A program made the position numbers and the translations under genes. The notes below the pieces were generated by a model. That model was not told the origin of the DNA, did no database searches, and worked only from the letters and a program-made list of their open reading frames with translations. Below, in pieces: positions 25,598-42,852 of a stretch of 46,115 nucleotides of DNA; the stretch's first letter is position 1; each line of letters opens with the position of its first letter. Source of the DNA: Thermotogota bacterium (GTDB lineage Bacteria > Thermotogota > Thermotogae > Petrotogales > Kosmotogaceae); contig JAYEJL010000100.1 of assembly GCA_034660555.1 (NCBI GenBank), positions 1-46,115 on the forward strand, in the 5' to 3' direction.

Positions 25598-25598
25598 C

Positions 25599-25688: not shown

Positions 25689-25697
25689 TTACATAAT

Positions 25698-25726: not shown

Positions 25727-25734
25727 GATTTCAG

Positions 25735-26752: not shown

Positions 26753-28108
26753 TTATGCATTTGTTAGTTTCTTACTTATTCGATTTTGTTCTTTTATATA
26801 ATTTTCTAAATCGTTGTCATTGATTTTTCCATTGATTATTCTCTGTTTTCCGTTAATCATCACAAAATCTACTTTACCGGGATCGCACATTACAAGAGAA
26901 GCAACAGGATCAGACAAACCACCTGCAAGTGAGAGTTTGTTTGTTTTAAAACCTATTATATCTGCTGCCTTACCCTCTTCAATTGAGCCAATATAATCGT
27001 CCATTCCAAGAACTCTTGCTCCTCCAATGGTTGCCATAATGAGAACATCTCTTGGTGTAAGGGCGTTTGCTCCTTTCACAACCCTTTGTAACATGAGTGC
27101 ATTTCGTATTTCCCATAACATATTACCTGAGTCATTTGAAGCACTACCATCAACAGCAAGCCCTATCTTCATGTTTTTGTTTTTCATTTCCATAACGGGT
27201 GCTATTCCAGAACCAAGACGCATATTTGATGTTGGACAATGAGCAAAGCCACATTCTGAGTCAGCAAGTTTTTTGATGTCTTGCTCAGAAAGCCAAACAA
27301 GATGTGCAAACCATGTTTCAGGTTTAAGCCATCCAACCTTTTCCATATAATCTACAGGTCTCAAACCCTTAGATTCAAGGCAGAATTCTTCTTCAGCTTT
27401 CGTTTCAGCAAGATGAGTGTGTAACAAAACACCGTATTCTTCAGCCAGCTCTCTTGTCTTTATCATTAATTCTTCCGTAACTGAAAAAGGAGAACATGGT
27501 GCAAGTGCTATTCTTAACATTGAATATCTACCTGGGTCATGATACTCATTTATAATTCTTTCAGAGTCCTCAAGTATTTCACGCTTACTCTGCACAACGC
27601 TATCGGGTGGTAAGCCTCCGTCTTTTTTTGAAAGAGACATTGATCCACGCGTTGGATGAAAGCGTATACCACAGTGTTCAGCTGCTTTTATTTCTGTGTC
27701 AATGAATCCTTCTTTACCTTTTGGATGAAGATAGAGCATATCTGTAGTAGTCGTGACACCGGTGGTCATCATTTCATATATACCTATTATTGCACTGTTA
27801 TAAATTGCATCGTTATCAATGTATTTCCAGATTTCATATAAAAATGTAAGCCAGTCAAATAGCTTAGATGAAGAAACATCGCGTATATTTCTGAAAAGAG
27901 ATTGAAATAAATGATGATGTGTATTTACAAATCCAGGTAAAACCACATAACCTTTTAGATCAATAACTTCGTCAATATTAGTGGATGGAGGATTACCCTC
28001 GCCTATCTTTGTGATAACATTATTATTGACAACAATATAAGCATCTGTTAATTCAGCTCCGTTCCTGTCCATAGTGGCCAGATAATCAATGTTTTTTAGT
28101 AAAATCAT
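26753..28108 (-). CDS. 8-oxoguanine deaminase-like amidohydrolase
   Basis: PGFVNTHHHLFQS, RGSMSL..KDGGLPPDSVVQ, APCSPFSV, HTHLAET, HCPTSNMRL, VDGSASND. Confidence 0.85.
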   Translation of the reverse strand: MILLKNIDYLATMDRNGAELTDAYIVVNNNVITKIGEGNPPSTNIDEVIDLKGYVVLPGFVNTHHHLFQSLFRNIRDVSSSKLFDWLTFLYEIWKYIDNDAIYNSAIIGIYEMMTTGVTTTTDMLYLHPKGKEGFIDTEIKAAEHCGIRFHPTRGSMSLSKKDGGLPPDSVVQSKREILEDSERIINEYHDPGRYSMLRIALAPCSPFSVTEELMIKTRELAEEYGVLLHTHLAETKAEEEFCLESKGLRPVDYMEKVGWLKPETWFAHLVWLSEQDIKKLADSECGFAHCPTSNMRLGSGIAPVMEMKNKNMKIGLAVDGSASNDSGNMLWEIRNALMLQRVVKGANALTPRDVLIMATIGGARVLGMDDYIGSIEEGKAADIIGFKTNKLSLAGGLSDPVASLVMCDPGKVDFVMINGKQRIINGKINDNDLENYIKEQNRISKKLTNA

Positions 28109-28251
28109 AAATCCACCTCCGGTAGAATTTTACCACGTTACATGATTGTAATTGTCGACTTATGAAATTTTTGTGTTTTGGTTGTTATGGTAGAACAGCG
28201 TATAATATAATGTTAATCAATATTTGTAGTAATGAAGAAAGGATGATATTT

Positions 28252-29442
28252 TTGAGCAGAAAAATCTTACAAAGAGCTAATGAGCTTAAGGATGAAGTTG
28301 CTGGGTTTCTAGTTGATCTTGTAAAAATCAAAAGCTATTCAGGACAGGAAAAGAAAGTTATAAAACGGATCGAGCAAGAAATGAACAAAGTGGGTTTTGA
28401 TGATGTGAAAATTGATGGAATGGGTAACATACTGGGTAAAGTAGGAAATGGAAAAAAAGTAATTGCAATGGATGCTCATATTGATACGGTGGAAGTAGGT
28501 AATCCTGATCTCTGGAAGGTGGATCCATTTTCCGGAGAAATAATTAACGGAATTATACATGGAAGAGGCGCATGTGATCAGAAAGCAGGAATGGCTTCAA
28601 TGATTTATGGAGTGAAAATAATGAAAGAACTGAACCTTTTGGATGATTTCACTCTATACATAACAGGAACGGTTATGGAAGAGGACTGTGATGGATTATG
28701 CTGGCAGTACATTGTCAATGAGGATGGAATTAAACCGGATTGTGTTGTTATAACTGAACCAACTAATTTAAACATCTACAGAGGTCATAGGGGTAGAATA
28801 GAACTACAGATAAAAACAACAGGAATGAGCTGTCATGCAAGTGCACCAGAAAGAGGAGAAAACGCAATATATAAAATGTCCAAAATAATAAACGAAATTG
28901 AGAAAATAAATGATCATCTTTATTCAGATGAATTTTTAGGAAAGGGAACCATTGCTGTTACCCAGATATACTTTCAATCTCCATCGCACAATGCAGTACC
29001 TGATGAATGTAGAATTCAGCTTGACAGGAGACTAACAGCAGGAGAAACGCGGGAAAAAGTAATATCGGAGCTAAAAAAGGCAATAGAAAAATCAGGCGAA
29101 AAAGCTGAGATACTAGAACTTGAATACAGTAAACCTTCTTATACCGGAAAAATCTATCCAACAAAGAAGTATTTTCCGTATTGGATATTACCTGAAGATC
29201 ATGAAATTGTACAAAAATCCTACAATACATTTGAAGAAGTTCTTGGTTACAAAACGAATATAGGTAAGTGGACATTTTCAACTAACGGGACAACGACAGC
29301 AGGGATGTTCGATATTCCCACAATTGGATTTGGCCCTGCAAATGAAATATATGCTCATAGCCCTGAAGATCAGGTGCCCGTTGAGCACCTTGTAAAAGCA
29401 GCGGCAGTATATGCTGCTCTGCCCAAGGCATTATCTGAATAA
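28252..29442 (+). CDS. ygeY: YgeY family M20 hydrolase
   Basis: MDAHIDTV, GRGACDQK, TVMEEDCDGLCWQYI, IYRGHRGR, KWTFSTNG; TTG 28252 chosen for SD spacing (ORF track 28162). Confidence 0.9.
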   Translation: MSRKILQRANELKDEVAGFLVDLVKIKSYSGQEKKVIKRIEQEMNKVGFDDVKIDGMGNILGKVGNGKKVIAMDAHIDTVEVGNPDLWKVDPFSGEIINGIIHGRGACDQKAGMASMIYGVKIMKELNLLDDFTLYITGTVMEEDCDGLCWQYIVNEDGIKPDCVVITEPTNLNIYRGHRGRIELQIKTTGMSCHASAPERGENAIYKMSKIINEIEKINDHLYSDEFLGKGTIAVTQIYFQSPSHNAVPDECRIQLDRRLTAGETREKVISELKKAIEKSGEKAEILELEYSKPSYTGKIYPTKKYFPYWILPEDHEIVQKSYNTFEEVLGYKTNIGKWTFSTNGTTTAGMFDIPTIGFGPANEIYAHSPEDQVPVEHLVKAAAVYAALPKALSE

Positions 29443-29464
29443 TTTATAAGTTAGGAGGTTACCA

Positions 29465-30454
29465 ATGAGTAGCTTACTTAGAGGTCGTAGTTTTATAACA
29501 ACGCAGGAATTCAGTAAAACAGAATTGGATTTGATGCTTGATCTTTCTAGCGATTTGAAGAGGCGTTTTGCTGTTGGAGAACCAACTCCATGGCTCAATC
29601 TAAAAACTCTATTTATGATTTTCTTTGATGAATCTACTAGAACAAGGAATTCCGTTGAAGCCGGGATGACACAGCTTGGAGGTCATGCACATTTCTTAAA
29701 TCCAAAAGTAATGCAAACCGCGCATGGTGAGGTTGCACGAGATACAGCTATGATACTTTCAAGATATGGTCATGGGATAGCCGTTAGACACTGCGCTTAT
29801 GGAATAGGAAATGCTTATCTCAGAGCACTGGAAAAATACTCCGATACACCCATTTTAAATTTACAGGATGATTATTATCATCCAATGCAGGTTCTTGCTG
29901 ATATCATTACAATTAGAGAAGTGTTTGGAAATAATCCAAGTGGACTAAAGGTTGGAATAAGCTGGGCATATGCGGAAAGTCATCTAAAGCCATTGTCTGT
30001 ACCACAGTCTCAAATACTGTTGTTCCCGAGATATGGACTTGATGTTACTCTCGCGTACCCCGAGGGATTTGATCTTATGCCTGAGATGGTAGAAACAGCG
30101 AAGAAAAATGCAGAAAAAAGTGGTACAAAATTCGATATTTCCCACAATATGGATGATGCCTTCAAAGATGCAGACATAGTAATACCCAAATCCTGGGGTG
30201 GATTCTTTGTATCTGAAGATGAAAGTGAGATAATGAACGAAACAAGAAAGCACAAGGACTGGATATGCACACCTGACAAGATGAAATTAGCCAATAAAAA
30301 TGCAATATACATGCATGCATTACCCGCTGATAGAGGCAAAGAAGTTGTAGATGAAGTGATAGATGGAGAACAATCGGTAGTCATTGATGAGGCAGAAAAC
30401 AGGTTGCATACAGCCAAGGCGGTGATGGCATTGACAATGGGCGGTCGTCCATGA
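29465..30454 (+). CDS. YgeW-like (knotted) carbamoyltransferase
   Basis: STRTR and HPMQ carbamoyl-phosphate motifs; WAY...KPLSVPQ and PKSW typical of YgeW rather than ArgF; HALPAD. Confidence 0.8.
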   Translation: MSSLLRGRSFITTQEFSKTELDLMLDLSSDLKRRFAVGEPTPWLNLKTLFMIFFDESTRTRNSVEAGMTQLGGHAHFLNPKVMQTAHGEVARDTAMILSRYGHGIAVRHCAYGIGNAYLRALEKYSDTPILNLQDDYYHPMQVLADIITIREVFGNNPSGLKVGISWAYAESHLKPLSVPQSQILLFPRYGLDVTLAYPEGFDLMPEMVETAKKNAEKSGTKFDISHNMDDAFKDADIVIPKSWGGFFVSEDESEIMNETRKHKDWICTPDKMKLANKNAIYMHALPADRGKEVVDEVIDGEQSVVIDEAENRLHTAKAVMALTMGGRP

Positions 30455-31818
30455 TCAGTGAGCTCTGTCTAAAAAATGGCTCAATTACAGATGGAACAAG
30501 CTGCATAAAAGGTGATATTCACATAAATGGCGATAAAATAGTTGCCATAACCCGTGCAGGTGAAATTGATTCTGAAAAGTATATAGATTGTGACGGTTTG
30601 AGCGTTATGCCCGGGTTTGTTGATCCTCATGTTCATTTTCAGCTGGATGTTGGTAATTACACGTCTCTTGATGATTTTTCTTCTGGTAGTGAAGCAGCAG
30701 TTTCAGGCGGTGTAACCACATTTATTGATTTTACCCAGCCTGTTAATCGATATTCTGATATCATAAAATCAATAGAAGAACGCAAGATGGTAGCTGGTAA
30801 TTCCAGAATTGATTATTCACTGCATTTAACACTGGCTGGAGATCCTGATTTTACTCCTGAAGAACTTATTGAGCTGGCAATCCGCGAAGGATTAACGTCT
30901 ATCAAGATATTTACAGCTTACGGTGATAGTAACAGACGTACCGATGACGGATATCTCAGCAGATTAGTTGAATTATCTGGTAAAAAGGGCGTCGTAATAA
31001 TGATTCATGCTGAAAACGATGAAATGATAAAACATAACATGAATTCTGCTAAAAGTTATTTGCCAAAGGAATTACCCGTGATAAGAAATTCAAAGAGTGA
31101 AATGCTTGATGCTGTAAAAATAGCAACGATGGCGGCAGAATCAAAAGGTCAATGCTATATGGTACATGTATCAAGCGGAAGAACAGTCGAATTTTTGAGT
31201 GAACATTTTAAAGAAACTCTTAATAAATATTTGTTTCTTGAGACATGTCCGCAGTACTTTTCGTTAAATGAGGAATCTCTTTCTGGAGATAAAGGCTTTC
31301 TTTACACATGTTGCCCACCCTTGCGAACTGAAACTGAAAGAAAGAAGATTATAAAGGGATTGATGGAAGAGAATATAAGGTCCATCGGTACCGACCACTG
31401 CCCTTTCAAGGTCGAAGAAAAGAAAGCCAATAAGGATGACATTAAAGAAATACCTTTTGGAATAGGAAGTATAGGATTTACATATAGTTTGTTCAGGACA
31501 TTTGTATCCAAATCTGCTATGGATGCAGCAAAGACATTGAGCAAAACACCAGCATTTTTAATGGGCCTGTATCCAAATAAAGGGTCTCTTTTGCCAGGAT
31601 CAGATGCAGATATTGTTATTGTAAACCCTGAAAAAGAATGGGTAGTAGGTAAGCCAGTTTATGGAAGATCTGAATATTCACCATATGAACATATGCGTCT
31701 AAAGGGTAAGGTTAAATTTACTATTTTAAGAGGAAAAATTGTTTTTGTTGGAAACAAGGTAACTGCAGATGAAGGTTATGGGGGATTTCTAAGCAGGGAC
31801 AGAATATTCTGGAGGTAG
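30451..31818 (+). CDS. Dihydropyrimidinase/hydantoinase (HyuA-like)
   Basis: PGFVDPHVH, GGVTTFIDF, HAEN, VHVSS, ETCPQY, PPLR, GTDHCPF. Confidence 0.88.
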   Translation: MISELCLKNGSITDGTSCIKGDIHINGDKIVAITRAGEIDSEKYIDCDGLSVMPGFVDPHVHFQLDVGNYTSLDDFSSGSEAAVSGGVTTFIDFTQPVNRYSDIIKSIEERKMVAGNSRIDYSLHLTLAGDPDFTPEELIELAIREGLTSIKIFTAYGDSNRRTDDGYLSRLVELSGKKGVVIMIHAENDEMIKHNMNSAKSYLPKELPVIRNSKSEMLDAVKIATMAAESKGQCYMVHVSSGRTVEFLSEHFKETLNKYLFLETCPQYFSLNEESLSGDKGFLYTCCPPLRTETERKKIIKGLMEENIRSIGTDHCPFKVEEKKANKDDIKEIPFGIGSIGFTYSLFRTFVSKSAMDAAKTLSKTPAFLMGLYPNKGSLLPGSDADIVIVNPEKEWVVGKPVYGRSEYSPYEHMRLKGKVKFTILRGKIVFVGNKVTADEGYGGFLSRDRIFWR

Positions 31819-31823
31819 AAAGC

Positions 31824-33125
31824 TTGATTGTAAAGGATGTTTCCATTTTCACAAACGATGGTTCTTTCATCGAGAAAGGCTATCTAAAAACTAACAATGG
31901 AGTAATTGAAGAGGTCTCTGAAGGGTCACCGGGTAGTACGGAAGAAAAGGTATATTCATTCCCCAATAGAATACTGATGCCCGGACTGGTTAATGCACAT
32001 ACGCATATCTATTCAGCGTTCTCAAGAGGTATGCCATTAAAAGGATTCTTGCCAAATACATTTACAGAGTTGCTTGAACAGATGTGGTGGAAGGTTGACA
32101 GAGCCCTAACTATGAAAGGGAATGAACTTAGCGCTTACCTTGCATCAATTGAATCGATGAAAGCAGGAGTAACCACACTAATTGACCATCACTCTTCCCC
32201 AAATGCTGTTAAAGGTTCTCTTGATACGATTGCTAACGCTGTTAATGAAACAGGATTAAGATGTTCGACAGCTTTTGAAATTTCTGATAGGAATGGCAAG
32301 AAAGTCCGTGATGAAAGCATTGATGAAAACTTCAAATTTGCTGAAACAAAAAATAAATTTAGAGCACCGTATATAGGTTTACATGCTTCTTTCACATTAT
32401 CAGATGAAACGCTTGAATTGATATCTGATGCAAATAAAAAGAGAATTCCGATACATGTTCATGTTGCTGAAGGACCGGAAGATGAGGAGAATTCAATTTC
32501 ACTACATGGTAAAAGAATAGTGCAGCGTTTTTATGATGCTGGTTTACTGACTGAGAATTCCTTGCTTGTCCATTGTATTCATACTGACGAGAAGGAAGAT
32601 GAAATAATTAGGAATAATGGGTGCTTTGTAGTGGTTAATCCCCAATCCAATATGAATAATGGTGTCGGTTATCCCGATTGGAAGGGAAAATTATCCAAAG
32701 GAACAAGAGTATGTCTTGGAAATGATGGGTTTGGATTTAACCTCTTTATAGACGGTCGTTTCCTGATACTTGGAATGCACAATGACACAAAAGATCCGAA
32801 AACTGCTGATCCTTTTGATTTGCAAAAAACCCTTTTCAATTACAATTATCAGCTTACTTCAAAGATTTTTGGATTGAAAATGGGAAAAATAAAGAAAGGA
32901 TATGCAGCTGATTTTGCTCTTTATGATTATAACCCGCCAACAGTTCTAAACAGTGAGAACTTTCCCGGACACCTTTTCTTTGGTATAGGAGATAATCCAA
33001 AGGTTACGGACGTTTTTGTACATGGTAGGCCCGTTATGAATTCTGGTGAAAGCGTGCTTATTGATGAGGAGAGATTATTTAAAGAATGCAGGGAATACAG
33101 CGCTGAGCTTTGGAAACAACTGTAA
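31824..33125 (+). CDS. ssnA: Aminohydrolase SsnA
   Basis: NAHTHIYSAFSRG, GVTTLIDHHSSP, GLHASFTLSDETL, HVHVAEG, NPQSNMNNGVG, LGNDG. Confidence 0.9.
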   Translation: MIVKDVSIFTNDGSFIEKGYLKTNNGVIEEVSEGSPGSTEEKVYSFPNRILMPGLVNAHTHIYSAFSRGMPLKGFLPNTFTELLEQMWWKVDRALTMKGNELSAYLASIESMKAGVTTLIDHHSSPNAVKGSLDTIANAVNETGLRCSTAFEISDRNGKKVRDESIDENFKFAETKNKFRAPYIGLHASFTLSDETLELISDANKKRIPIHVHVAEGPEDEENSISLHGKRIVQRFYDAGLLTENSLLVHCIHTDEKEDEIIRNNGCFVVVNPQSNMNNGVGYPDWKGKLSKGTRVCLGNDGFGFNLFIDGRFLILGMHNDTKDPKTADPFDLQKTLFNYNYQLTSKIFGLKMGKIKKGYAADFALYDYNPPTVLNSENFPGHLFFGIGDNPKVTDVFVHGRPVMNSGESVLIDEERLFKECREYSAELWKQL

Positions 33126-33143
33126 ATATGGAAGGATGATTGA

Positions 33144-34229
33144 ATGGATTTGACTACAACTGTCTTCAATATGGAACTAAAAAATCCAGTAATGCCAGCC
33201 TCGGGACCATTAACCGGTGATGATAAAAAAATGCTGTTTATTGCTAATCAGGGAGTTGGTGCAGTTGTGACAAAGACAATTTCTACAAAGGCAGCGGAAG
33301 TACCAAGGCCCTGTATAATCTCTGGAAACAACTATGTGATTAACGCTGAGTTGTGGAGCGAATTTAATTACGATAAGTGGATTGATGAATTTTTACCAGC
33401 TTTCAGAAATAAAAGCGATTTACCTTTGATTGTAAGTCTGGGTTATTCGGTTGAGGATCTTAAATTCCTGGTACCGAAATTCAACGATTTTGCCAGCGCT
33501 TTCGAGCTATCCACACATTATGTTGCAAACGATCCTGAACTAATGAGTGAATTGATTAGAACTGTCAAGTCTAAAACAGATAAACCTGTAATTATCAAGT
33601 TTGATCCTTCCGTAGAGGAACCTGGCAAAATGGCACGGGTAATTGAGAAAGCAGGTGGTGATGGAATAGCAGCGATAAATTCACTGGGTCCTGTTTATCC
33701 TCTGGATATTGATGAAAAACATTCACCACTTGGAAGTAAAGATGGTTTTGGCTGGATATCTGGTCCGGTAATAAAAATGCTTTCACTTGCTATGGTGAAG
33801 AAAATAGCGTCAAATTGCGAATTGCCCGTCATAGGAATAGGTGGCATCATCTCTGCTAAAGATGTCCTGAAATATCTTATGGCTGGCGCCACTGCAGTTC
33901 AATTGCTATCAGGAGCACTTATTAGAGGTAAATCAATCTACAAAAAAATCATTTCTGATCTGCCTTCTGTAATCGAAAAACATGGATTCAATTCTGTTAG
34001 AGAAACTATCGGGATTTCTAACAATGAAATGGAAATTTCCTATGCGAAAAAAACTCCCGTTATCGATCACGAAAAGTGTACTCTATGTGAATTATGTGTT
34101 GATGTTTGTCCATATCATGCTCTTTCCATTACAGATAAGGTTGAAGTAAACATTGATGATTGTTTCGGATGTGGTCTATGTCAGAGCAGGTGCCCTGTAA
34201 AAGCCATAGGAGGGGTGCTTTTTGAGTGA
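33144..34229 (+). CDS. DHODH/PreA-like FMN oxidoreductase with C-terminal 2x[4Fe-4S] domain
   Basis: LKNPVMPASGP, VTKT, AINS, ISGP, IGIGGI, GATAVQ; CTLCELCVDVCP and CFGCGLCQSRCP. Confidence 0.85.
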   Translation: MDLTTTVFNMELKNPVMPASGPLTGDDKKMLFIANQGVGAVVTKTISTKAAEVPRPCIISGNNYVINAELWSEFNYDKWIDEFLPAFRNKSDLPLIVSLGYSVEDLKFLVPKFNDFASAFELSTHYVANDPELMSELIRTVKSKTDKPVIIKFDPSVEEPGKMARVIEKAGGDGIAAINSLGPVYPLDIDEKHSPLGSKDGFGWISGPVIKMLSLAMVKKIASNCELPVIGIGGIISAKDVLKYLMAGATAVQLLSGALIRGKSIYKKIISDLPSVIEKHGFNSVRETIGISNNEMEISYAKKTPVIDHEKCTLCELCVDVCPYHALSITDKVEVNIDDCFGCGLCQSRCPVKAIGGVLFE

Positions 34230-35454
34230 ATACCGATTGAGATGTATCAGCTGTGGTAGAGAATTTAGTAAGGAAGAGGTTGAATACACATGTCCGGTAT
34301 GCGGTGACCGAAAAGGCACTCTTGAGGTCCTGTATGATTATGAATTTCTTTCGAAAAGAATTGATAAAAGTATCTTCCGTAAGTACTCCAATGAAGGAAT
34401 ATGGCAATTTAAAGATATTCTTCCTGTTAGTAAAGACACGACATTTCCTGCTTTGGAGGTAGGCAATACCCCCACCTACTTTGACAAGGATATTGCAAAA
34501 CAATTTAACTTGAATAGTTTTTCGGTCAAAGATGATGGACGCAATCCATCAGCCTCATACAAAGATAGAGCAAGTGCAGTAGCTGTGGTGAAAGCTAAAG
34601 AAAAGAATTACGACACCATTTTTTGCGCTTCTACTGGAAATGCAGCAAGTTCTCTGGCGTGTTTTTCAGCCGTCTCAAATCTTAAATGCATTATATTTGT
34701 ACCAGCAACATCTCCAGAAGCAAAACTGGCCCAAATGCAGGTATATGGCGCAAATGTAATCGCGATTGATGGATCATACGATATTGCCTTTGATATTTCT
34801 ATGAAAGTTGGGTTGACAAATGGGTGGTACTGCAGGAACAGTGCTATAAATCCCTATCTACTTGAAGGTAAAAAAACAGGTGCACTGGAGTTAGCTGTAC
34901 AGTATAGCTGGAAGCTTCCTGATTACGTGTTTGTGTCCGTGGGTGATGGAACTGTGTACAGCAGTTTCTGTAAAGGATTTTATGATCTTAAACAACTTGG
35001 ATTGATTGAAAAATCACCCATAGTAATTGGAGTTCAAGCGGAAAAAATTTCTCCCATAACAGATACCTTTCAAAAGGGGGAGCCTTTTGAACCGATAGAT
35101 GTAGAAGGGAATACGGTTGCTGATTCAATAGGTGTCGGGAAACCACGGGATGTCATAAAAGCAATAAAATATGCTAAAAGGTTTAATGGCAACTTTGTAA
35201 AGGTAACTGATGAAGAAATACTGGATGCAGTTGCTCAGTTAGCAAGGAAAACTGGCGTTTTTGCTGAACCAGCTGGGGCTGCATCATTTGCAGGGTTTAA
35301 GAAGTATGCGGGTTTGAATTCGCTGGAAGGCAAAAATGTTAGTATAATTGTAACGGGAAATGGTTTAAAGGATCTAAAATCAGCTATGAAGAAGGTCGGT
35401 TCTGTTAAAATATATCCAGCAGATGAAAAGGTTATCAGGGAGGCTTTCCGATGA
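34222..35454 (+). CDS. Threonine-synthase-like PLP enzyme (fold type II)
   Basis: N-terminal CxxC..CPxC, GNTP, NPSASYKDR, ASTGNAA, EGKKT, VGDG, EPAGA, TGNGLK. Confidence 0.85.
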   Translation: MSEYRLRCISCGREFSKEEVEYTCPVCGDRKGTLEVLYDYEFLSKRIDKSIFRKYSNEGIWQFKDILPVSKDTTFPALEVGNTPTYFDKDIAKQFNLNSFSVKDDGRNPSASYKDRASAVAVVKAKEKNYDTIFCASTGNAASSLACFSAVSNLKCIIFVPATSPEAKLAQMQVYGANVIAIDGSYDIAFDISMKVGLTNGWYCRNSAINPYLLEGKKTGALELAVQYSWKLPDYVFVSVGDGTVYSSFCKGFYDLKQLGLIEKSPIVIGVQAEKISPITDTFQKGEPFEPIDVEGNTVADSIGVGKPRDVIKAIKYAKRFNGNFVKVTDEEILDAVAQLARKTGVFAEPAGAASFAGFKKYAGLNSLEGKNVSIIVTGNGLKDLKSAMKKVGSVKIYPADEKVIREAFR

Positions 35455-35903
35455 ATATAACTTTCAGATTAAATGGTGATGAAATCACTGTGGATGTCAA
35501 AAGCAATCGAAGAGCTCTTGATTTTATAAGAGAAGATTTGGGGCTAGCAGGAACCAAAGAAGGTTGTGGTGAAGGTGAATGCGGAGCCTGCACCATAATA
35601 GTAGATGGAAAAGCTGTTAATTCCTGTCTAATGTTTGCTGTAGAGTTTGATGGTAAAGATGTTTTAACCATTGAGGGATTAGGAGAGAAAGAGCTGGATA
35701 AAATACAAAAGGCGTTTGTTGACAAAAATGGAATACAGTGTGGTTTCTGTACTCCGGGAATGATAATGTCGATAAAAGCATTGCTTGACAAAAATCCAGA
35801 ACCTGACGAGGAAGAAATAAAAACTGCTCTTGAAGGCAATCTTTGTCGTTGCACGGGTTACTATAAGATAATTGAGGCCGTTAAATATCTCAGTGGGAAA
35901 TAA
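35451..35903 (+). CDS. Xanthine dehydrogenase-family 2x[2Fe-2S] subunit
   Basis: GTKEGCGEGECGACT, QCGFCTPG, GNLCRCTGY. Confidence 0.93.
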   Translation: MNITFRLNGDEITVDVKSNRRALDFIREDLGLAGTKEGCGEGECGACTIIVDGKAVNSCLMFAVEFDGKDVLTIEGLGEKELDKIQKAFVDKNGIQCGFCTPGMIMSIKALLDKNPEPDEEEIKTALEGNLCRCTGYYKIIEAVKYLSGK

Positions 35904-36492
35904 AAAAACTGGGGGTGCCATACTTGCAGCTGGTTTTTCCAAAAGATTCATTGGAAAAAAACTTAGAACCTATCTGGGAGAGAAGCCTCTACTGCAATGG
36001 ATTATTGATGTAGTATCAGAATCATGTGTTGAAAGTTCAGTAATAATAATAAATGATACTTTTTCAAAGGATAAGTTTGATAATAAAAAGCTGGATATTA
36101 TAATAAACGAAAAGCCTCAAAAAGGAATATCCAGATCAGTTTTTTTGGCTTTGAATTGGGCATTAAAAAATAAGATAGACGGCCTATTTCTAACAACTGG
36201 GGATATGCCCTTCATAAAGCCAGAAGATTTTGAATTCTTAATTGAGAAAAGTGAATACTATCGAGACAATGTCCTAAGTTGTTCTTATAAGGGTACGAAA
36301 GGTTTCCCGACGTTTATTCCTGAGAAGTATTTTTATCTGATGAACGATCTTGAGGGAGACCGGGGATTTTCACAAATTATAAAAAAATATAAATTACCTC
36401 ATAAAATGATAGAAAGAACATGGCGAAATATTTTTGATATCGATACACAGAAGGATTTTGAAAAAGCAAAGGAATTATTGAAATATGTCTGA
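35872..36492 (+). CDS. Molybdenum cofactor cytidylyltransferase (MocA/YgfJ-like)
   Basis: ILAAGFSKRF, GDMPFI, LEGDRG, DIDT; true start may be GTG 35893. Confidence 0.85.
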   Translation: MRPLNISVGNKKTGGAILAAGFSKRFIGKKLRTYLGEKPLLQWIIDVVSESCVESSVIIINDTFSKDKFDNKKLDIIINEKPQKGISRSVFLALNWALKNKIDGLFLTTGDMPFIKPEDFEFLIEKSEYYRDNVLSCSYKGTKGFPTFIPEKYFYLMNDLEGDRGFSQIIKKYKLPHKMIERTWRNIFDIDTQKDFEKAKELLKYV

Positions 36493-37249
36493 TACTGTAG
36501 AAGATATTTTGAAGCAAAAGAATATTGTGGTTATTGCAACAGTATTTAATAGCAAAAGTTCAAGCTTTAGAAAAAATGGGCAAATGTTCGCATTAACAAG
36601 GCAAAATGAATTTATTGGTAATTATGAAGGAGAATTCGGGGTATACATCAAGGAGCGTTTGTTAGGAGCGAAGAAAAAAACGTTAAGTTTCATCGATACG
36701 TTTACTCAGAGTAGATCGAACGCAGCAGATTCAGGAGGCGTGTGTGGAGAGAGGACAAAGGTTTTCTTTAATTATATTGGTGAATCTCCTATGGTAATTA
36801 TATTTGGGTGTGGTGACCTTGGAAAGATATTAGCGGATATTATGAAAAGCACAGGTTATAGAGTTCTTGTTGTTGATGATGACGAAAGCTTTTTAAAAGA
36901 TATTGATGATCGATTTGATAAGAAATTGATAGACTATGACATAAAAGAAACATATCCGGACATTGAAGAAAAAGACTTTTGTGTGGTATTAACAAGAGGG
37001 CATCAAAGGGACCTTAAGGCATTAAAAGTAATTTTTTCTTACAATCCAAGATACATCGGAATGATAGGATCAGCAAGAAAGAATGAAGAGTTGCATGAAG
37101 AGTTTATCAAAAGCGGTTATTTTGAAGAACAATGGAAAATGATAAAAACTCCAATTGGACTAGAAATAAACGCACTAACGCCCGGTGAAATAGCTATAGC
37201 AATAGCAGCGGAAATAGTTGATGCAAAAAACAGAATAAGCCAGGAATAA
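36485..37249 (+). CDS. XdhC/CoxI family Mo-hydroxylase maturation factor
   Basis: GGVCG, IFGCG, TRGH..D, YIGMIGS, PIGLEI.A.TPGEIAIAI.AE. Confidence 0.88.
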   Translation: MSDTVEDILKQKNIVVIATVFNSKSSSFRKNGQMFALTRQNEFIGNYEGEFGVYIKERLLGAKKKTLSFIDTFTQSRSNAADSGGVCGERTKVFFNYIGESPMVIIFGCGDLGKILADIMKSTGYRVLVVDDDESFLKDIDDRFDKKLIDYDIKETYPDIEEKDFCVVLTRGHQRDLKALKVIFSYNPRYIGMIGSARKNEELHEEFIKSGYFEEQWKMIKTPIGLEINALTPGEIAIAIAAEIVDAKNRISQE

Positions 37250-37261
37250 GGGGGTACAGAA

Positions 37262-38104
37262 GTGGCATGCAAAGTATATGTACCGGAGAATGAAGAGGCG
37301 TTGCTTGACAGGTTGATGGAACCCGGAAATGTGATAATGGCTGGCGGTACTGATCTTATGGTTAGGTTAAGAAAGGGAATCGTACTTCCAGAATCAGTTG
37401 TTTGTATGACAAAGATACCCTGTATGAATGAAATAGAAGATCGTGGAAACAAAATAAGATTGGGTTGCAAGGTAACATATTCACAAATTCTTGGCTCAAG
37501 AATGCTTTTAGAAAAATCGCCTTTGCTTTTAAAGATAGTTAGAAAGATTGGAAGTACTCAAATAAGAAATAGAGGTACACTGGTTGGCAATATCGTAAAT
37601 GCTTCTCCTGCAGGAGACTCCATCATCGCGATGGTATTATCCAATGCGACAGTAAACATTAGAGGGCCTAAAGGTGATAGAAAAATGGATCTGGAAGATT
37701 TTATTTTTGGACCGGGAAAAACCGCATTGTCTGTTGGGGAGTTTGTAAGAAGTGTAGATTTTGAATCAACTGAGGACTGGAATAATATCTTTTTTAAAGT
37801 GGGTCAGAGAAATGCAATGACAATTGCTACAGCTTCAGTTGGAATACTTTACAATAGAAAAAATATTCGTGTCGCTTTCGGTTCAGTTTCTCCCACTGTT
37901 GTTAGAGCCACAAAAGCTGAAAGGCTTTTTGAACAGCATGGGATACAGGGAACGAAAAGAGAGGAATTCATTGATAAATGTCTTGAATATATTTCGCCAA
38001 TAGATGATGTTAGAGCGTCAGCATGGTATAGAAAGGAAGTAATAAAAGGTTTAATTGAACGTGCATTAAAGATTATCGAAAGGGGTGAAGGGGATGCTTC
38101 TTAA
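37262..38104 (+). CDS. Xanthine dehydrogenase-family FAD subunit (XdhB-like)
   Basis: AGGTDL, QIRNRGTLVGNI.NASPAGD, PIDDVRASAWYR. Confidence 0.92.
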   Translation: MACKVYVPENEEALLDRLMEPGNVIMAGGTDLMVRLRKGIVLPESVVCMTKIPCMNEIEDRGNKIRLGCKVTYSQILGSRMLLEKSPLLLKIVRKIGSTQIRNRGTLVGNIVNASPAGDSIIAMVLSNATVNIRGPKGDRKMDLEDFIFGPGKTALSVGEFVRSVDFESTEDWNNIFFKVGQRNAMTIATASVGILYNRKNIRVAFGSVSPTVVRATKAERLFEQHGIQGTKREEFIDKCLEYISPIDDVRASAWYRKEVIKGLIERALKIIERGEGDAS

Positions 38105-38924
38105 CGTAAAGGCATATCATAAACCTCGTAGTATAGATGAGGCATTCAATATCTGGAGCGACCACAAAGATGAAGCGGTTTTAATCGCGGGAGGTACAAA
38201 TGTTGCTTTAATGAAATCCCATATTCCAAAACATCTTATAGACCTTAAATCTCTGGCACTAAATGATGTAAAAGAAAAGGGTAATAAGATAGTTGTTGGA
38301 GCAATGATCGATATCGAAAGCTTCAGGAAAAACCAGATAATAAGAAAAAACTTTGGCGACTTTTTCTTTAAGTCATTCGATGACATAGCCAGCCCTCAGT
38401 TAAGAAATATGATAACTATTGGTGGTTCTGTAGCTGCAAAGGTAGGATGGTCCGATGTGACTACATGTCTTTTAGCCACTGAAAGTCGCTTAATGACTTT
38501 TGGAATAAATGGTTATCAGAATATCAACATAACTGAATTCAATCATTTACCAAGGGATAAAAAGCCCATTATAACCCACATAATACTAAACAAAGAAGAT
38601 TTTATATACGGGTTTAGAAGATTTACAAAATCCGCCTTTGATATTTCTATGGTTAACGTTGGAATTGCATTGAAGATCGAGTCAGATATTGTTAAACGAT
38701 CAAGGTTTGTTATAGGTTCAAGACCTCAAATGCCTGATAGATTTTCGGATGTGGAAGAAGGTATTGAAAATCTCAAATTAGATGACAATTTACCAAATAT
38801 TGCACGGAACCTTGTGTTCGAACATTTTACAGGCGGCAGTAATTATCTTGCTTCGGTTGAGTATAGAAGGCATCTCGCTTCAGTTCTTACTGAGAGGATA
38901 TTAACCGAATTGGGTGGTGTTTAG
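38085..38924 (+). CDS. Second Xdh-family FAD subunit (YgfM-like)
   Basis: YHKPRSIDEA, AGGT, QLRNMITIGGS, ASVEYR. Confidence 0.88.
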   Translation: MKGMLLNVKAYHKPRSIDEAFNIWSDHKDEAVLIAGGTNVALMKSHIPKHLIDLKSLALNDVKEKGNKIVVGAMIDIESFRKNQIIRKNFGDFFFKSFDDIASPQLRNMITIGGSVAAKVGWSDVTTCLLATESRLMTFGINGYQNINITEFNHLPRDKKPIITHIILNKEDFIYGFRRFTKSAFDISMVNVGIALKIESDIVKRSRFVIGSRPQMPDRFSDVEEGIENLKLDDNLPNIARNLVFEHFTGGSNYLASVEYRRHLASVLTERILTELGGV

Positions 38925-39395
38925 ATGAAAATCAAACTGACAGTTAACAAAAAGATTCATGAAGTCCAGATAGATCCCGGTGAAATGTTGCTGGACGTTT
39001 TAAGACGGTTGGGATACAAAAGCGTGAGAAGAAGCTGTGATTCAGCGAGCTGTGGTAATTGTACTGTTTTACTGGAAGGAAAACCAATTCTTTCGTGTAT
39101 AACATTCGCTGCATCAGTTGATAACTGCTCAATAGAAACTGTTGAAGGTCTCTCGGAAAAAGAAGAGCTTCATCCTATTCAGGAAGCGATACTTGAAGCA
39201 GGAGGCAGTCAGTGTGGATATTGTATAAGTGGGCTGACACTGACAATTAAATCTTTTCTTGCTGAGAATCCAGACCCGGATGATAAGGAGATAAAGAAAG
39301 CTCTGGTGGGCAATCTCTGCAGATGCACGGGATATGAATCCCAGATAAAAGCTGTCAGACTTGCAGCGGAAAAACTCAGGGATGAAAAGAGATGA
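38925..39395 (+). CDS. Second Xdh-family 2x[2Fe-2S] subunit
   Basis: CDSASCGNCT, QCGYC, GNLCRCTGY. Confidence 0.92.
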   Translation: MKIKLTVNKKIHEVQIDPGEMLLDVLRRLGYKSVRRSCDSASCGNCTVLLEGKPILSCITFAASVDNCSIETVEGLSEKEELHPIQEAILEAGGSQCGYCISGLTLTIKSFLAENPDPDDKEIKKALVGNLCRCTGYESQIKAVRLAAEKLRDEKR

Positions 39396-41713
39396 GTGAA
39401 AGAAAAGAATTCAATTATGTAAATAAGAATGAAATCAAGGTTGATGGTTCTGCAATATTAAAGGGCAAACCTGTTTATACAGATGATTTCGATTTTCCAG
39501 ACGCCTTGCATGTAGTTCTTGTTCGAAGTACATATCCTCATGCAAGGATAAAAAGCTTAGATAAACAAAAGGCATTGAAGGTACCTGGAGTGGTTGAAAT
39601 TCTGACATATGAAGATGTTCCTCAGAAGATTTTCACAAAGGCTGGTCAGGGTTTTCCAGAACCATCTCCTTATGATAGCTTCATTTTAAGTAGAAAGGTA
39701 CGCTATGTTGGTGACCCGGTCGCAATAGTTGCTGCAGAAACTATAGATGCAGCTAAAATTGCTGCGAGTAAGGTAAATGTTGAATATGAAAAGCTTGAAC
39801 CTGTACTTGATTTCAAAAAAGCTACCATGGATGGAGCACCGGTGATACATGATGAAGAAGGCACAAAAGATATACATGACCCTTCAAGAAATATTGCTTC
39901 TCATTACGAAATGGAAGTGGGAAATACTGATGAAGTAATGGGAAAATGTGATTATGTTGTTGAAAAAACCTATCATATAAATACCCAGCTTCATGCGATG
40001 ATGGAACCTCATGTGTCCATAAGTTATTATGATACGAATGGACGACTTGTTGTAATCACATCCACGCAGGTGCCTTTTCATGTCAGAAGAATCTTGTCGA
40101 TGATATTCGATATCCCTATAAGGAAAATTCGCGTTATTAAACCGCGAATTGGTGGTGGTTTTGGAGGGAAGCAAGCTGTTCATGTTGAACCATATGTGAC
40201 TGCTGTGACGCTTAAAACAGGGAGACCTGCCAGGATGATCTTTGAACGACCTGAGGTTTCCATGGCGACAAATATCCGACACGAAATGGAGTTTAAAGCG
40301 GCAGTAGGCGCATCAAAAGATGGAACGATCAAAGCGCTTTCACTTGATGGCCTTTCAAATACAGGTGCTTATGGAGAACATGCGCTAACCGTTTTCATGG
40401 TAGCCGGCTCAAAAACACTACCACTCTATAACAAAGTGGAAGCAGTAAGATTTAGAGGAGACGTTGTTTACACCAATTTACCACCCGCTGGAGCGTATAG
40501 AGGTTATGGGGCTCCACAAGGTCTTTTTGCACTTGACTGTGTTATCGATGAACTAGCCCAGGAACTGGGAGTTGATCCACTTGAACTGAAACGAAATAAT
40601 TCAATAAAAGAAGGAGAAACATCTCCTATATTTAAAATTATGGGAGAAGGAACAGAAGGCGTGGAACAGATAGTTCGTAGCTGTAAATTAGATGAGTGTG
40701 TAGAGAAAGGCAAGAAAATAATTAACTGGGATGAAAAGATAAATCGTAAAGAGAAGCCAGGTAAAAAGGTTAAAGGTGTAGGATGCGCGCTTGCAATGCA
40801 AGGTTCGGGTATTGCAAAAGTTGATATGGGCGCAGCATCTGTAAAAGTTAACGAAGATGGTTCCGTAAACCTTCATTTAGGTGCAACTGATCTGGGGACT
40901 GGCAGCGATACAATAATGGCTCAGATAGTTGCAGAAACCCTTGATATTCCTGTGAAAAAGGTAATTGTGTATTCTTCCGATACCGACATGACCCCCTTTG
41001 ATGTTGGAGCCTACGCGTCGAGTACCACCTATGTATCGGGTAATGCAGTAAAGAAAGCAGCTGAAAAGCTTAAGAACAGGATAAAAGAAAAGGCTGCTCA
41101 TTATCTGAACACAGATGTTGACAATATTGAGGTCAAGAATCAACACGTATTAAATAAAGAAAATGGCGAAAAAATATCTTTCAGCGATCTTTTTACCAAA
41201 CTGTTTTATACATTTGAGCAGGAACAGTTAATGGCATCAGCATCATACGTAGGTAATGAATCACCACCACCCTATCTGGCAACGTTTGCCGAAGTAGAAA
41301 TTGATCTTGAAACGGGTAAAATTGATGTTTTAAAGATCGTTTCAGTTGCTGATTGTGGTACTCCAATCAACCCGATTCAGGCAAAAGGGCAACTGGAAGG
41401 AGCCACCATGCAGGGACTGGGCTGGGCTCTGTATGAAGATGTTAAATATGATGGCAGAGGAAGAATGCTAACCAACGATTTCTTCACCTATAAAATTCCG
41501 TCAAGGATGGATTACGTGAGTATGGAATGTCATCTTGTTGACAGCTATGAACCTAGCGGTCCATTTGGCGCCAAGAGCATTGCAGAAATCGGAATCGATA
41601 CACCTATACCTGCTATAGCCAACGCAATATACAATGCAACAGGTATAAGATTGAGAGAAGCCCCCTTCAGTAGCGAAAAATTGCTTATGGAGATATTGAG
41701 GAAGGAGATTTGA
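39392..41713 (+). CDS. Xdh-family molybdopterin-binding subunit (XdhD-like)
   Basis: STQVPFH, IGGGFGGKQ, AYRGYGAPQG, DLGTG, YASS, GPFGAKSIAE. Confidence 0.93.
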   Translation: MSERKEFNYVNKNEIKVDGSAILKGKPVYTDDFDFPDALHVVLVRSTYPHARIKSLDKQKALKVPGVVEILTYEDVPQKIFTKAGQGFPEPSPYDSFILSRKVRYVGDPVAIVAAETIDAAKIAASKVNVEYEKLEPVLDFKKATMDGAPVIHDEEGTKDIHDPSRNIASHYEMEVGNTDEVMGKCDYVVEKTYHINTQLHAMMEPHVSISYYDTNGRLVVITSTQVPFHVRRILSMIFDIPIRKIRVIKPRIGGGFGGKQAVHVEPYVTAVTLKTGRPARMIFERPEVSMATNIRHEMEFKAAVGASKDGTIKALSLDGLSNTGAYGEHALTVFMVAGSKTLPLYNKVEAVRFRGDVVYTNLPPAGAYRGYGAPQGLFALDCVIDELAQELGVDPLELKRNNSIKEGETSPIFKIMGEGTEGVEQIVRSCKLDECVEKGKKIINWDEKINRKEKPGKKVKGVGCALAMQGSGIAKVDMGAASVKVNEDGSVNLHLGATDLGTGSDTIMAQIVAETLDIPVKKVIVYSSDTDMTPFDVGAYASSTTYVSGNAVKKAAEKLKNRIKEKAAHYLNTDVDNIEVKNQHVLNKENGEKISFSDLFTKLFYTFEQEQLMASASYVGNESPPPYLATFAEVEIDLETGKIDVLKIVSVADCGTPINPIQAKGQLEGATMQGLGWALYEDVKYDGRGRMLTNDFFTYKIPSRMDYVSMECHLVDSYEPSGPFGAKSIAEIGIDTPIPAIANAIYNATGIRLREAPFSSEKLLMEILRKEI

Positions 41714-41714
41714 T

Positions 41715-42845
41715 ATGAAATTTAAAACATTTCTGATATTTTTTATACTGCTTGGCAGTCTGTTAGTTTCTAAAAACCTTACTGTCTGGGTTAGCTGGGA
41801 AGGTTTGTCCTTTTTTGAAGAAAAAGCTGAAGAGTTTAATAAAGATACGGGTCATAACATAGAAATACTCTTTGTACCGAACATGGAAGAAAAATTACTA
41901 ACATCAATCAAAACAGGTAATCTACCAGATCTGGCATTGATTAAGGATGTGCATTCGGGATATTTGTCTCATGTAAATACTTTATACAGAATAAAAGATG
42001 AAGATCTCGAACAATTGGGTACATTCAGAAAAGATGATCTGAAAGTATTTTCGGTTAATAATGAAATTGTTGCAATTCCATATTATGCAGATCTTCAGGT
42101 TGCTTTCGTTAATCAGAAGATTTTGAAAGAGTCAGGTCATGAGCTTTCATTTGATTACACCATTGATGATATTAGAGAAATCAAAGATGATTTTGAAAAT
42201 AGTGAAATATTTCCCGCAGCCTGGGATTTCATGTCACCATATGTTTTTTATCCCTTTGCAGTGCATGACGCGGAGTTAATCGATGAAAATGGAAAACTAC
42301 AAATGGATACTGATTTTCTTGCTGAAACTATACGCAATATAAAAGAATTATTTGACGAAAATATATTTGAAAGATATGAGAGAGGTGCTCTTATTAAAGG
42401 TTTCAGTTCGGGAAAAATTGCTATAATACTTCAGGGAAGCTATCTTAGTCCTACTTTTGAACAAAATGAAACAAGCTTCGAAATTTTGCCTTTTCCAGTG
42501 ATGAATGATAAAAGGATTAAGGGACTTATTGATGCAAAGGGATTTGCGATACTTAACAGGACGAAACAAGACATTGCCCTTGAATTTATAGTTTTTCTAT
42601 ACAGCAATTCGAATTCTTATTGTGAAAAATACTATAAAGTACCGCTATGGACTGAATCCAACTCTGAAAAACTAAAGGATCTAAGAGCTGTCTTAAAAGA
42701 GAGTCAATACATGGAACAAAGTGAAAATTTTCAACGCTTATACTTTAGGGTTATGAGAACTGTTCTACAATCAGTTTATTCGGAAACAATGACTGTTGAA
42801 GAAAGCCTTCAGAATGCACAGGAATTTGTGAATAAGAATTGGTAG
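41715..42845 (+). CDS. ABC transporter substrate-binding protein (carbohydrate/CUT1-like)
   Basis: Signal peptide without lipobox, LTVW, GNLPDL, AIPYY, FSSGKIA. Confidence 0.8.
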   Translation: MKFKTFLIFFILLGSLLVSKNLTVWVSWEGLSFFEEKAEEFNKDTGHNIEILFVPNMEEKLLTSIKTGNLPDLALIKDVHSGYLSHVNTLYRIKDEDLEQLGTFRKDDLKVFSVNNEIVAIPYYADLQVAFVNQKILKESGHELSFDYTIDDIREIKDDFENSEIFPAAWDFMSPYVFYPFAVHDAELIDENGKLQMDTDFLAETIRNIKELFDENIFERYERGALIKGFSSGKIAIILQGSYLSPTFEQNETSFEILPFPVMNDKRIKGLIDAKGFAILNRTKQDIALEFIVFLYSNSNSYCEKYYKVPLWTESNSEKLKDLRAVLKESQYMEQSENFQRLYFRVMRTVLQSVYSETMTVEESLQNAQEFVNKNW

Positions 42846-42852
42846 ATAATTT

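Follow-up and report, generated by a model that had tools for sequence, protein, structure and literature searches.

In 2025, two studies of gut bacteria established how urate is degraded anaerobically through 2,8-dioxopurine (Li et al., PMC12507026; Liu et al., 10.1101/2025.04.24.650524), by a route described there as dependent on selenium and as ending with YgeX. In the scheme given in these two accounts, XdhD converts urate to 2,8-dioxopurine, YgfK reduces the ring, SsnA and HyuA carry out ring opening, YgeW (with carbamate kinase) and YgeY strip the ureido groups, and YgeX turns diaminopropionate into pyruvate. SelD and YqeBC are reported in every cluster-bearing strain of a gut library, and the 2,8-dioxopurine dehydrogenase of C. 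sporogenes is stated to need SelD (10.1101/2025.04.24.650524). In C. difficile, UacX (UniProt Q181U4), a PF01180 protein with Fe-S clusters and no flavin adenine dinucleotide (FAD) domain, was shown to substitute for YgfK, while its electron donor was left open (PMC12507026). Here, we describe a cluster of 17 genes on contig JAYEJL010000100.1 of the Thermotogota assembly GCA_034660555.1 (C100; 46,115 bases, analysed as a whole and referred to as the window). Homology and gene context make it fairly likely that the reductive urate pathway exists here in a Thermotogota-type version independent of selenium, and that this cluster is its main operon, with a remodelled "threonine synthase" (ThrC-like protein) as a candidate for the place of YgeX.

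The window comes from a metagenome-assembled genome (MAG) of 2.1 Mb in 188 contigs, with an estimated completeness of 95.5%. The closest named relatives of its proteins are found in Kosmotogaceae and Petrotogales MAGs and, judged by these relatives, the source is a Kosmotogaceae-like Thermotogota organism; Kosmotoga and Marinitoga, too, are represented among the homologues. The cluster (26753-45625) consists of one divergent gene and 16 tightly packed co-directional genes. The latter form an array on the plus strand (28162-45625) with spacing from a 32-base overlap to a 22-base gap, and the divergent gene (26753-28108, minus strand) lies 53 bases upstream of it. A contig of another MAG, labelled "Thermotogaceae" (L020), is syntenic over all 17 genes. 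A preliminary description, prepared from the sequence of the window, had proposed an alternative urate or purine pathway in a Thermotogota organism, encoded by a packed operon with one divergent gene between 26753 and 41713. In a Pfam and NCBIfam scan of 43 open reading frames (ORFs), hand-picked from ORF lists, every gene that it named was recovered at its position, and the relatives and the synteny speak for its view of the organism and the pathway. The array as such also stood, though its real end is at 45625, about 3.9 kb and three genes further on. Overall, we regard the gene content of a real operon as confirmed, and its assignment to a variant of the reductive urate pathway as likely, in so far as it forms part of the whole scheme set out below.

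YgeY, an M20 hydrolase, is encoded by the first gene of the array (28162-29442, plus strand, as are all genes of the array). It scores 584 bits with NF009555 (cut-off 321) and 566 bits with a second YgeY model, in both cases well over the cut-off of about 321, and is 50% identical to E. coli YgeY. By homology, it would cleave a ureido group and leave diaminopropionate. The next gene (29465-30454) encodes a short YgeW-like carbamoyltransferase of 329 residues that remains under all NCBIfam cut-offs: 242 bits against 306 for ornithine carbamoyltransferase (OTC), and 217 against 453 and 204 against 500 for the two YgeW models. Among solved structures, it is matched best by E. coli YgeW (3Q98, 200 bits); it is 40% identical to this enzyme, compared with 33% to the genome's own OTC. 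Homologues of this protein are encoded near carbamate kinase, mostly adjoining it, in six surveyed loci (L067, L075, L082, L086, L096 and L098), and we assign to it, provisionally, the phosphorolysis of a ureido group to carbamoyl phosphate. The HyuA-like cyclic amidohydrolase (30451-31818) has the hydantoinase model TIGR02033 as its best family match, below the cut-off (305 bits against 393), shows 30% identity to E. coli HyuA, and presumably opens a hydantoin or dihydropyrimidine ring. SsnA (31824-33125), at 33% identity to its E. coli counterpart, likewise has the SsnA family as its best match yet stays below both cut-offs (NF005540, 424 bits against 444; second model, 378 against 455); by homology, it would open the ring of reduced 2,8-dioxopurine. 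The divergent gene (26753-28108, minus strand) encodes an 8-oxoguanine-deaminase-like amidohydrolase (NF006055, 591 bits, cut-off 532). Its homologues, 44-60% identical, stand beside genes for molybdopterin (Mo) and iron-sulphur (FeS) subunits or for CysK-like proteins in L077, L083, L087, L106 and L108-L110, and the enzyme probably channels oxidised guanine or a related aminopurine into urate.

A second SsnA-like amidohydrolase of 427 residues is encoded about 2 kb upstream of the cluster (23531-24814, minus strand), beside a WecG-type glycosyltransferase gene. It is 26.5% identical to the SsnA of the operon, scores 99.5 bits with the SsnA model (cut-off 444) and has no Pfam match at 1e-5.

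Among the subunits of molybdenum hydroxylases, the Mo subunit of the window (39392-41713) is of the XdhD type, with 37% identity to E. coli XdhD and 35% to XdhA; identities between window proteins and those of the E. coli cluster range from 30 to 50%. In a MAFFT alignment, this subunit and its orthologues share the inserted GEG loop of XdhD, with a Glu aligned to E606 of XdhD, and this loop is missing in E. coli XdhA and in the other sequences of the xanthine dehydrogenase (XDH) type aligned. It was Glu606 that Li et al. highlighted as present in XdhD and not in XdhA (PMC12507026). The two genes preceding the Mo gene complete the set. The FeS2 gene (38925-39395; PF01799), directly upstream, encodes a 2Fe-2S subunit with which residues 1-151 of E. 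coli XdhD align, and the FAD2 gene (38085-38924; PF00941 and PF03450) encodes a YgfM-like FAD subunit; E. coli YgfM matches FAD2 and not FAD1. Because of the XdhD loop with its E606 equivalent, FAD2-FeS2-Mo is the best candidate for the urate-reducing enzyme.

Xdh-type subunits had been noted in the preliminary description, and they are indeed present; what it missed is that the set is uneven, with two FeS and two FAD subunits for only one Mo subunit, and that a second Mo gene lies on another contig. The surplus comprises FeS1 (35451-35903; PF01799 and PF00111), a 2Fe-2S subunit of the XdhC/PucE type, and FAD1 (37262-38104; PF00941 and PF03450), an XdhB-like FAD subunit and the best match of E. 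coli XdhB in this genome. Between them lie genes for a MocA-like molybdenum cofactor cytidylyltransferase (35872-36492; PF12804; TIGR03310, 106 bits, cut-off 186) and for an XdhC-type maturation factor (36485-37249; PF13478, 111 bits), whose sole homologue in the locus survey is that of L020.

The second Mo gene belongs to another purine module, on contig C147 (558-5963; locus L016), where adenine deaminase, an orphan Mo subunit of the XDH type and a CysK-like enzyme dependent on pyridoxal phosphate (PLP) are encoded in tight coupling; the contig ends 557 bases past the module. The Mo gene lies between the other two, with a 1-base overlap with the CysK-like gene, a partner that the preliminary description had likewise missed. 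The product of the Mo gene is of the XdhB/PucD type, is 31% identical to the Mo subunit of the window and lacks the E606 loop; the surrounding 17 kb contain neither a FeS nor a FAD gene. Orthologues of this Mo subunit (40-42% identity) in three loci labelled Halanaerobiales (L077, L083 and L087) adjoin a FAD subunit and an orthologue of FeS1 (54-58%). Among Thermotogota relatives, the CysK-like gene comes right after an XDH-type Mo gene in seven of 12 loci, with an 8-oxoguanine-deaminase-like gene following in four of those, and the ThrC-like loci of two such relatives (L029 and L042) carry FeS1-mocA-FAD1 without any Mo gene. The C147-type Mo gene is also apart from the FeS1/FAD1 pair in all five genomes examined from Bipolaricaulota and Atribacterota; in four of these, it is preceded by a homologue of the carbamoyltransferase and has neither a FeS nor a FAD gene within 1.5 kb. 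Such a gene context suggests that FeS1 and FAD1 are probably the missing subunits of the C147 xanthine dehydrogenase. Literature searches and term searches within the papers returned no report of an XDH split between loci, although their supplementary files may hold one.

The gene between ssnA and the ThrC-like gene (33144-34229) encodes a reductase with a flavin mononucleotide (FMN)-binding domain similar to that of dihydroorotate dehydrogenase (PF01180), C-terminal Fer4 domains for two [4Fe-4S] clusters, and no FAD domain. Its score with the PreA model is 152 bits (cut-off 335). Matched to the UacX of C. difficile by the architecture described for the latter and by its adjacency to ssnA, the protein is, as judged from its sequence, a UacX-type reductase in YgfK's place. 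Homologues at 33-48% identity occur in Clostridia-type loci of the survey. The preliminary description had suspected an undescribed replacement of YgfK here; such a replacement is not new, a PF01180 flavo-FeS substitute being already in print as UacX (PMC12507026). It had also named canonical ygfK or ygeX elsewhere in the genome as a point to be checked, and neither reached its cut-off anywhere: the best YgfK match (TIGR03315) has 295 bits against 835, and the best YgeX match 39 bits against 532. The former, on contig C178, was considered as a hidden YgfK and rejected, being an NfnB/GltA-type protein beside an NfnA-like subunit. The two genes form an NfnAB-type pair (C178:3568-5786, or 575-2793 of locus L001), consisting of an NfnA-like FAD/NAD subunit and a GltA/NfnB-like subunit, and this pair is a possible source of low-potential electrons for UacX.

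Directly after the reductase gene comes the gene of the ThrC-like protein (34222-35454), a PLP enzyme of the PALP family with an N-terminal Cys4 ribbon. It exceeds the threonine synthase cut-off of TIGR00260 (204 bits against 167), and its homologues bear the name threonine synthase in databases. With the YgeX model TIGR03528, it reaches only 25 bits (cut-off 532), and so it is not a YgeX orthologue. The S(Y/F)KDR motif with the PLP lysine is retained. Compared with the solved threonine synthases 6CGQ, 2D1F and 2ZSJ, the protein has STGNAAS for STGNTSA, NPYLLEGKKT for NPYRxEGQKT, and VGDGTV for VGNAGN. The resulting substitutions, T to A141, R to L213 and N to D242, are invariant across 18 family members from several phyla. 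The T, R and N are kept in all eight canonical ThrC sequences compared, five of which come from genomes that also have the ThrC-like gene (four of them Thermotogota MAGs). We take the altered positions to be those that bind the phosphate of O-phosphohomoserine in T. thermophilus ThrC. The ThrC-like gene is the only ThrC-family gene of this genome, in which PF00742 (homoserine dehydrogenase) has no match, while the same model is above its cut-off in 14 of 14 control genomes; nor is there a homoserine kinase above the cut-off, the best thrB match in the genome having 29 bits against 168. Because these two enzymes are missing and the pocket is altered, the ThrC-like gene does not, in our view, make threonine, and we propose its product as a candidate replacement for YgeX. 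A complex prediction for the ThrC-like and CysK-like proteins gave a score of 0.00 in both runs, which is uninformative on binding either way.

A profile-guided scan with one genome per species yielded 80 ThrC-like loci, labelled as Thermotogota, Bipolaricaulota, Atribacterota, Spirochaetaceae, Terriglobia, KSB1, Anaerolineae, Heimdallarchaeota and several orders of Bacillota. Neighbourhoods were counted from crude ORF calling and single-linkage clustering, with the ThrC-like ORF itself uncalled in five of the 80 loci. At least one purine-cluster gene accompanies the ThrC-like gene in 75 of the 80 loci, and L025, one of the five scored as having none, does carry a UacX gene that the clustering missed. 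In the 75 called loci, the gene directly upstream is UacX in 22, YgfK in nine, a YgfK fragment in four, and a CysK-like PLP protein of 450-550 residues in nine (the YgfK of L027, taken as representative, scores 1019 bits against a cut-off of 835). Directly downstream lies a 2Fe-2S subunit in 25 loci, a FAD subunit in 11 and a CysK-like gene in 10. YgeX was found in just three of the 80 loci. In several Thermotogota MAG loci (L025, L026, L032, L034 and L045), a bare module of a 3,5-diaminohexanoate-dehydrogenase-like (KDD-like) gene, UacX and the ThrC-like gene stands apart from other purine genes. When the genomes of all but L032 were searched whole, each of the four had YgeY and a CysK-like gene elsewhere.

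Fifty of the 80 source genomes were surveyed in full, those omitted having mostly short loci. A CysK-like protein, at 41-92% identity, is encoded in 49 of the 50, YgeY in 37, and a further ThrC-family gene in 39. YgeX is above its cut-off in five and reaches 519 bits (cut-off 532) in one more; selD is present in 19, with none in the first 26 genomes (G001-G026), mostly Thermotogota and Bipolaricaulota. From these counts, the ThrC-like gene emerges as an extra paralogue that is constantly accompanied by the CysK-like enzyme and occurs mostly where YgeX is missing, without this exclusivity being strict. It pairs with either type of ring reductase and is not tied to UacX. Hence, the mutual exclusivity between the two substitutes and ygfK/ygeX that had been anticipated holds strongly, though not strictly, for the ThrC-like gene and YgeX (both in five of 50 genomes), and fails with regard to YgfK, which the ThrC-like gene follows in canonical form in nine loci, or in 13 if fragments are included. 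The 13 genomes without YgeY (in the range G007-G030) are mostly Bipolaricaulota. In L098, from a MAG labelled uncultured Thermotogae, two carbamoyltransferase paralogues adjoin carbamate kinase. A second phosphorolytic cleavage may replace YgeY in the lineages that lack it.

Neither literature searches nor term searches within Li et al. 2025, Liu et al. 2025 and Barba et al. 2013 brought up a paper that places a ThrC-like or CysK-like protein in the pathway, although supplementary files may list such neighbours. By the procedure given in Li et al. (PMC12507026), any PF00291 neighbour of SsnA was counted as "YgeX", and such scoring would hide the difference between YgeX and the ThrC-like and CysK-like proteins.

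As regards selenium, none of selD, yqeB and yqeC has a match in this 95.5%-complete genome, a complete lack that had escaped the preliminary description, and the version of the pathway encoded in the window appears to be selenium-independent. The same searches of the literature and of the terms within papers turned up no report of a version of this pathway without selenium genes, with the same proviso on supplementary files. The preliminary description had listed ygfK, ygeX, carbamate kinase, selD and NCS2 permeases as absent from the window. None of them is among the ORFs scanned there; however, other contigs carry a carbamate kinase gene, above its cut-off and beside a true OTC in the arc locus on C187, and two NCS2 permease genes.

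Taken together, these data let us draft the following scenario. Purines would be converted to urate by the divergent 8-oxoguanine-deaminase-like enzyme and by a classical XDH, assembled from the orphan Mo subunit that is encoded beside adenine deaminase on C147 and from the FeS1 and FAD1 of the window. FAD2-FeS2-Mo, as the counterpart of YgfM-XdhD, would reduce urate to 2,8-dioxopurine, after which UacX, in the place of YgfK, would reduce the ring with electrons from a low-potential donor. SsnA and then HyuA would open the two rings. The short YgeW-like carbamoyltransferase would take one ureido group as carbamoyl phosphate, from which the carbamate kinase of the arc locus could gain ATP, and YgeY would strip the other. 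Finally, 2,3-diaminopropionate or its mono-ureido precursor would be converted to pyruvate and ammonia by the ThrC-like and CysK-like enzymes, in replacement of YgeX. The sequences themselves show the gene content and its conserved co-occurrence, the XdhD loop, the altered ThrC pocket and the absences from the genome. We infer from homology and gene context all substrate assignments in this scenario, as well as the replacement of YgeX by the two PLP enzymes, the independence of selenium and the assembly of XDH from split loci.

Several observations weigh against this scenario. SsnA, HyuA, the carbamoyltransferase, MocA and the Mo subunit are all under curated cut-offs; selD, yqeB and yqeC were called absent from draft MAGs; the assignment of FeS1 and FAD1 to the C147 subunit is made from gene context, which for the Bipolaricaulota Mo genes was viewed over 1.5 kb on each side. 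The scenario also calls for two PLP enzymes in the place of one YgeX. The ThrC-like gene most often comes right after the ring reductase (UacX in 22, YgfK in nine to 13 of 75 loci) and is less often beside YgeY or the carbamoyltransferase, so that an earlier step would also fit. Moreover, it coexists with YgeX in five to six of 50 genomes, and YgeY is lacking in 13; therefore, the pair may perform chemistry other than the deamination of diaminopropionate.

These last points lead to the alternative that fares best, though we consider it rather unlikely: that the pathway is one of urate while the ThrC-like protein is not a YgeX substitute. Instead, it would act on another intermediate, for example after YgfK/UacX and SsnA, or eliminate urea or carbamate from ureido-alanine, the last deamination being left to the CysK-like or another protein. 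Its position directly downstream of UacX or YgfK in 31-35 of 75 loci, the bare KDD-like/UacX/ThrC-like modules, the absence of YgeY in 13 of the 50 genomes with the ThrC-like gene and the retention of YgeX in five of them would all agree with such a role. However, PLP chemistry requires a free alpha-amine, which the published scheme does not provide until one ureido group is gone (PMC12507026). Furthermore, for the final step, 44 of the 50 genomes offer no YgeX that reaches or comes close to the cut-off, and the genomes with bare modules still have YgeY and a CysK-like gene elsewhere.

A second alternative concerns FeS1 and FAD1, which might be an electron-input module for UacX, passing electrons from NAD(P)H to FAD and on to the 2Fe-2S cluster, rather than XDH subunits. 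Indeed, UacX has FMN and 4Fe-4S domains only and is without the FAD/NAD(P)H part that YgfK has of its own, its donor was left open by Li et al. (PMC12507026), and FeS1 directly follows the ThrC-like gene, close to the reductase, in 25 of 75 loci. Nevertheless, we hold this to be improbable, for the FeS1-mocA-FAD1 string also follows canonical YgfK in Bipolaricaulota, where the reductase has a FAD module already; the FeS1 orthologue adjoins a C147-type Mo subunit and a FAD subunit in L077, L083 and L087; and orphan Mo genes were present in five of the five genomes checked.

It is still less probable, and in our opinion very unlikely, that the operon serves the degradation of pyrimidines, hydantoins or another N-heterocycle by a route of PydA, PydB and an M20-type ureidopropionase. 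UacX is related to PreA/PydA and HyuA to dihydropyrimidinase, and M20 enzymes can be beta-ureidopropionases. Yet YgeY is far over a cut-off specific to YgeY, SsnA is the best family match of its gene, the Mo subunit is of the XdhD type with the E606 loop, the 8-oxoguanine deaminase is above its cut-off, the second Mo gene lies next to that of adenine deaminase, and the reductase is well short of the PreA cut-off (152 bits against 335), with no GltD/PreT-like gene among the window ORFs scanned.

Finally, that the ThrC-like protein is the plain threonine synthase of the organism, placed in the operon by chance, is hardly credible: its TIGR00260 score (204 bits against 167), its status as the sole ThrC-family gene of the genome and its database name would suit this, but the three pocket residues of all eight canonical ThrC are replaced, neither a homoserine dehydrogenase nor a homoserine kinase above the cut-off is encoded in the genome, the ThrC-like gene is accompanied by another ThrC-family gene in 39 of the 50 genomes surveyed, and the context of a purine cluster is kept across phyla.

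Extending the reductive urate reading beyond this genome, it is tempting to suppose that many anaerobes from outside the gut (Thermotogota, Bipolaricaulota, Atribacterota and several orders of Bacillota) run a distinct urate pathway. In it, a previously undescribed pair of PLP enzymes, a long "cysteine synthase" alongside the remodelled "threonine synthase", would stand in for YgeX in the last C-N cleavages, both Mo hydroxylases would function without the selenium cofactor (in Thermotogota and Bipolaricaulota), and the FeS and FAD subunits of XDH would be encoded apart from its Mo subunit. We put this joint reading forward tentatively, as one that falls somewhat short of probable. The chemistry of the pair may differ from that of YgeX; for instance, the two might be lyases specific for the D- and L-forms, or might eliminate urea or carbamate directly from ureido-alanine.

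The three genes beyond 41713 concern transport, at least in part. An ABC (ATP-binding cassette) substrate-binding protein (41715-42845; PF01547) has homologues in L020 (70% identity) and L021 (36%); a PDB sequence search gave only distant matches of the MalE type, from which no ligand can be inferred. A fused double ABC permease (42853-44886; PF00528) is 86% identical to its homologue in L020. The last gene (44879-45625) encodes a DUF364/DUF4213 protein (PF04016 and PF13938; 85% identity in L020), whose PDB matches, 3L5O and 3NPG, are both uncharacterised. Near the operon, an Rfam scan covering the entire window gave no riboswitch or other regulatory RNA; its only matches were two tRNAs and a group II intron. 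The match to the 5' part of this intron (D1-D4; RF01999, 120.8 bits) lies at 45797-45915 on the plus strand, 172 bases past the DUF364 gene, and the contig ends 200 bases beyond it. Thus, an assembly break at the mobile element may have cut off the end of the operon, including any gene for an ABC ATPase. A tRNA match (25602-25688, minus strand, 54.5 bits) falls inside an 87-residue ORF (25550-25813, minus strand), which is therefore probably spurious. The remainder of the contig carries housekeeping genes.

If our interpretation is correct, the window and the survey of 50 genomes point to an environmental version of a pathway hitherto described from gut bacteria, one that appears to work without selenium and to have its terminal enzyme replaced by proteins labelled "threonine synthase" and "cysteine synthase". 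A widespread mis-annotation would then be corrected, and predictions of threonine or cysteine prototrophy in MAGs that are based on these two gene names would need checking. A partner would also be assigned to "orphan" and "spare" subunits of molybdenum hydroxylases. Finally, the engineered uricolytic probiotics that Li et al. describe as their aim (PMC12507026) might profit from candidate selenium-independent urate-degrading enzymes, possibly derived from thermophiles.

It remains to set the locus beside the described systems. With the E. coli cluster (ygeW-ygeX-ygeY-hyuA-yqeA, mocA and ygfK-ssnA-ygfM-xdhD), the window shares YgeY and, as putative members below their cut-offs, a YgeW-like protein, HyuA, SsnA and MocA, as well as FAD2-FeS2-Mo as the equivalent of YgfM-XdhD, including the E606 loop; carbamate kinase is shared at the level of the genome. 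Unlike E. coli, it has UacX instead of YgfK, and the ThrC-like and CysK-like proteins are present where YgeX is absent. XdhD is a fused protein in E. coli, whereas the FeS and Mo genes of the window are separate, and the carbamoyltransferase is about 65 residues shorter than E. coli YgeW. Furthermore, this genome is without selD, yqeB and yqeC, carbamate kinase is encoded on a different contig, within the arc locus, and the operon has ABC transporter genes rather than a nucleobase permease.

The cluster of C. difficile, as described with its UacX and UacY (PMC12507026), resembles the window in the FMN/4Fe-4S reductase of the PF01180 family, which in both adjoins ssnA, has no FAD domain and takes the place of YgfK. 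The two differ in that C. difficile has the D-aminoacylase-like UacY whereas the window keeps a carbamoyltransferase, in that the window has YgfM-like FAD subunits, which are missing from C. difficile XdhD, and in that ygeX is conserved there (PMC12507026) and absent from this genome. Purine use by C. difficile requires SelD and YqeB, according to work cited in Liu et al. (10.1101/2025.04.24.650524), and both are absent here. With the selenium-dependent 2,8-dioxopurine dehydrogenase of C. sporogenes (10.1101/2025.04.24.650524), our scenario has in common a molybdenum hydroxylase proposed to act between urate and 2,8-dioxopurine. In contrast to the C. sporogenes and gut strains of that report, neither this genome nor G001-G026 has selD, and the operon of the window includes an XdhC-type maturation factor.

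Lastly, the ThrC-like protein shares with canonical ThrC (6CGQ, 2D1F, 2ZSJ and 1UIM, matched at 149-202 bits) the fold-type II PLP core and the motif of the PLP lysine, and departs from it in A141, L213 and D242, in an additional Cys4 ribbon of some 55 residues at the N-terminus, and in its purine-cluster context. With YgeX, the 2,3-diaminopropionate ammonia-lyase modelled by TIGR03528, it has in common the fold-type II PLP superfamily and, if our scenario holds, the position in the pathway that is to be filled.

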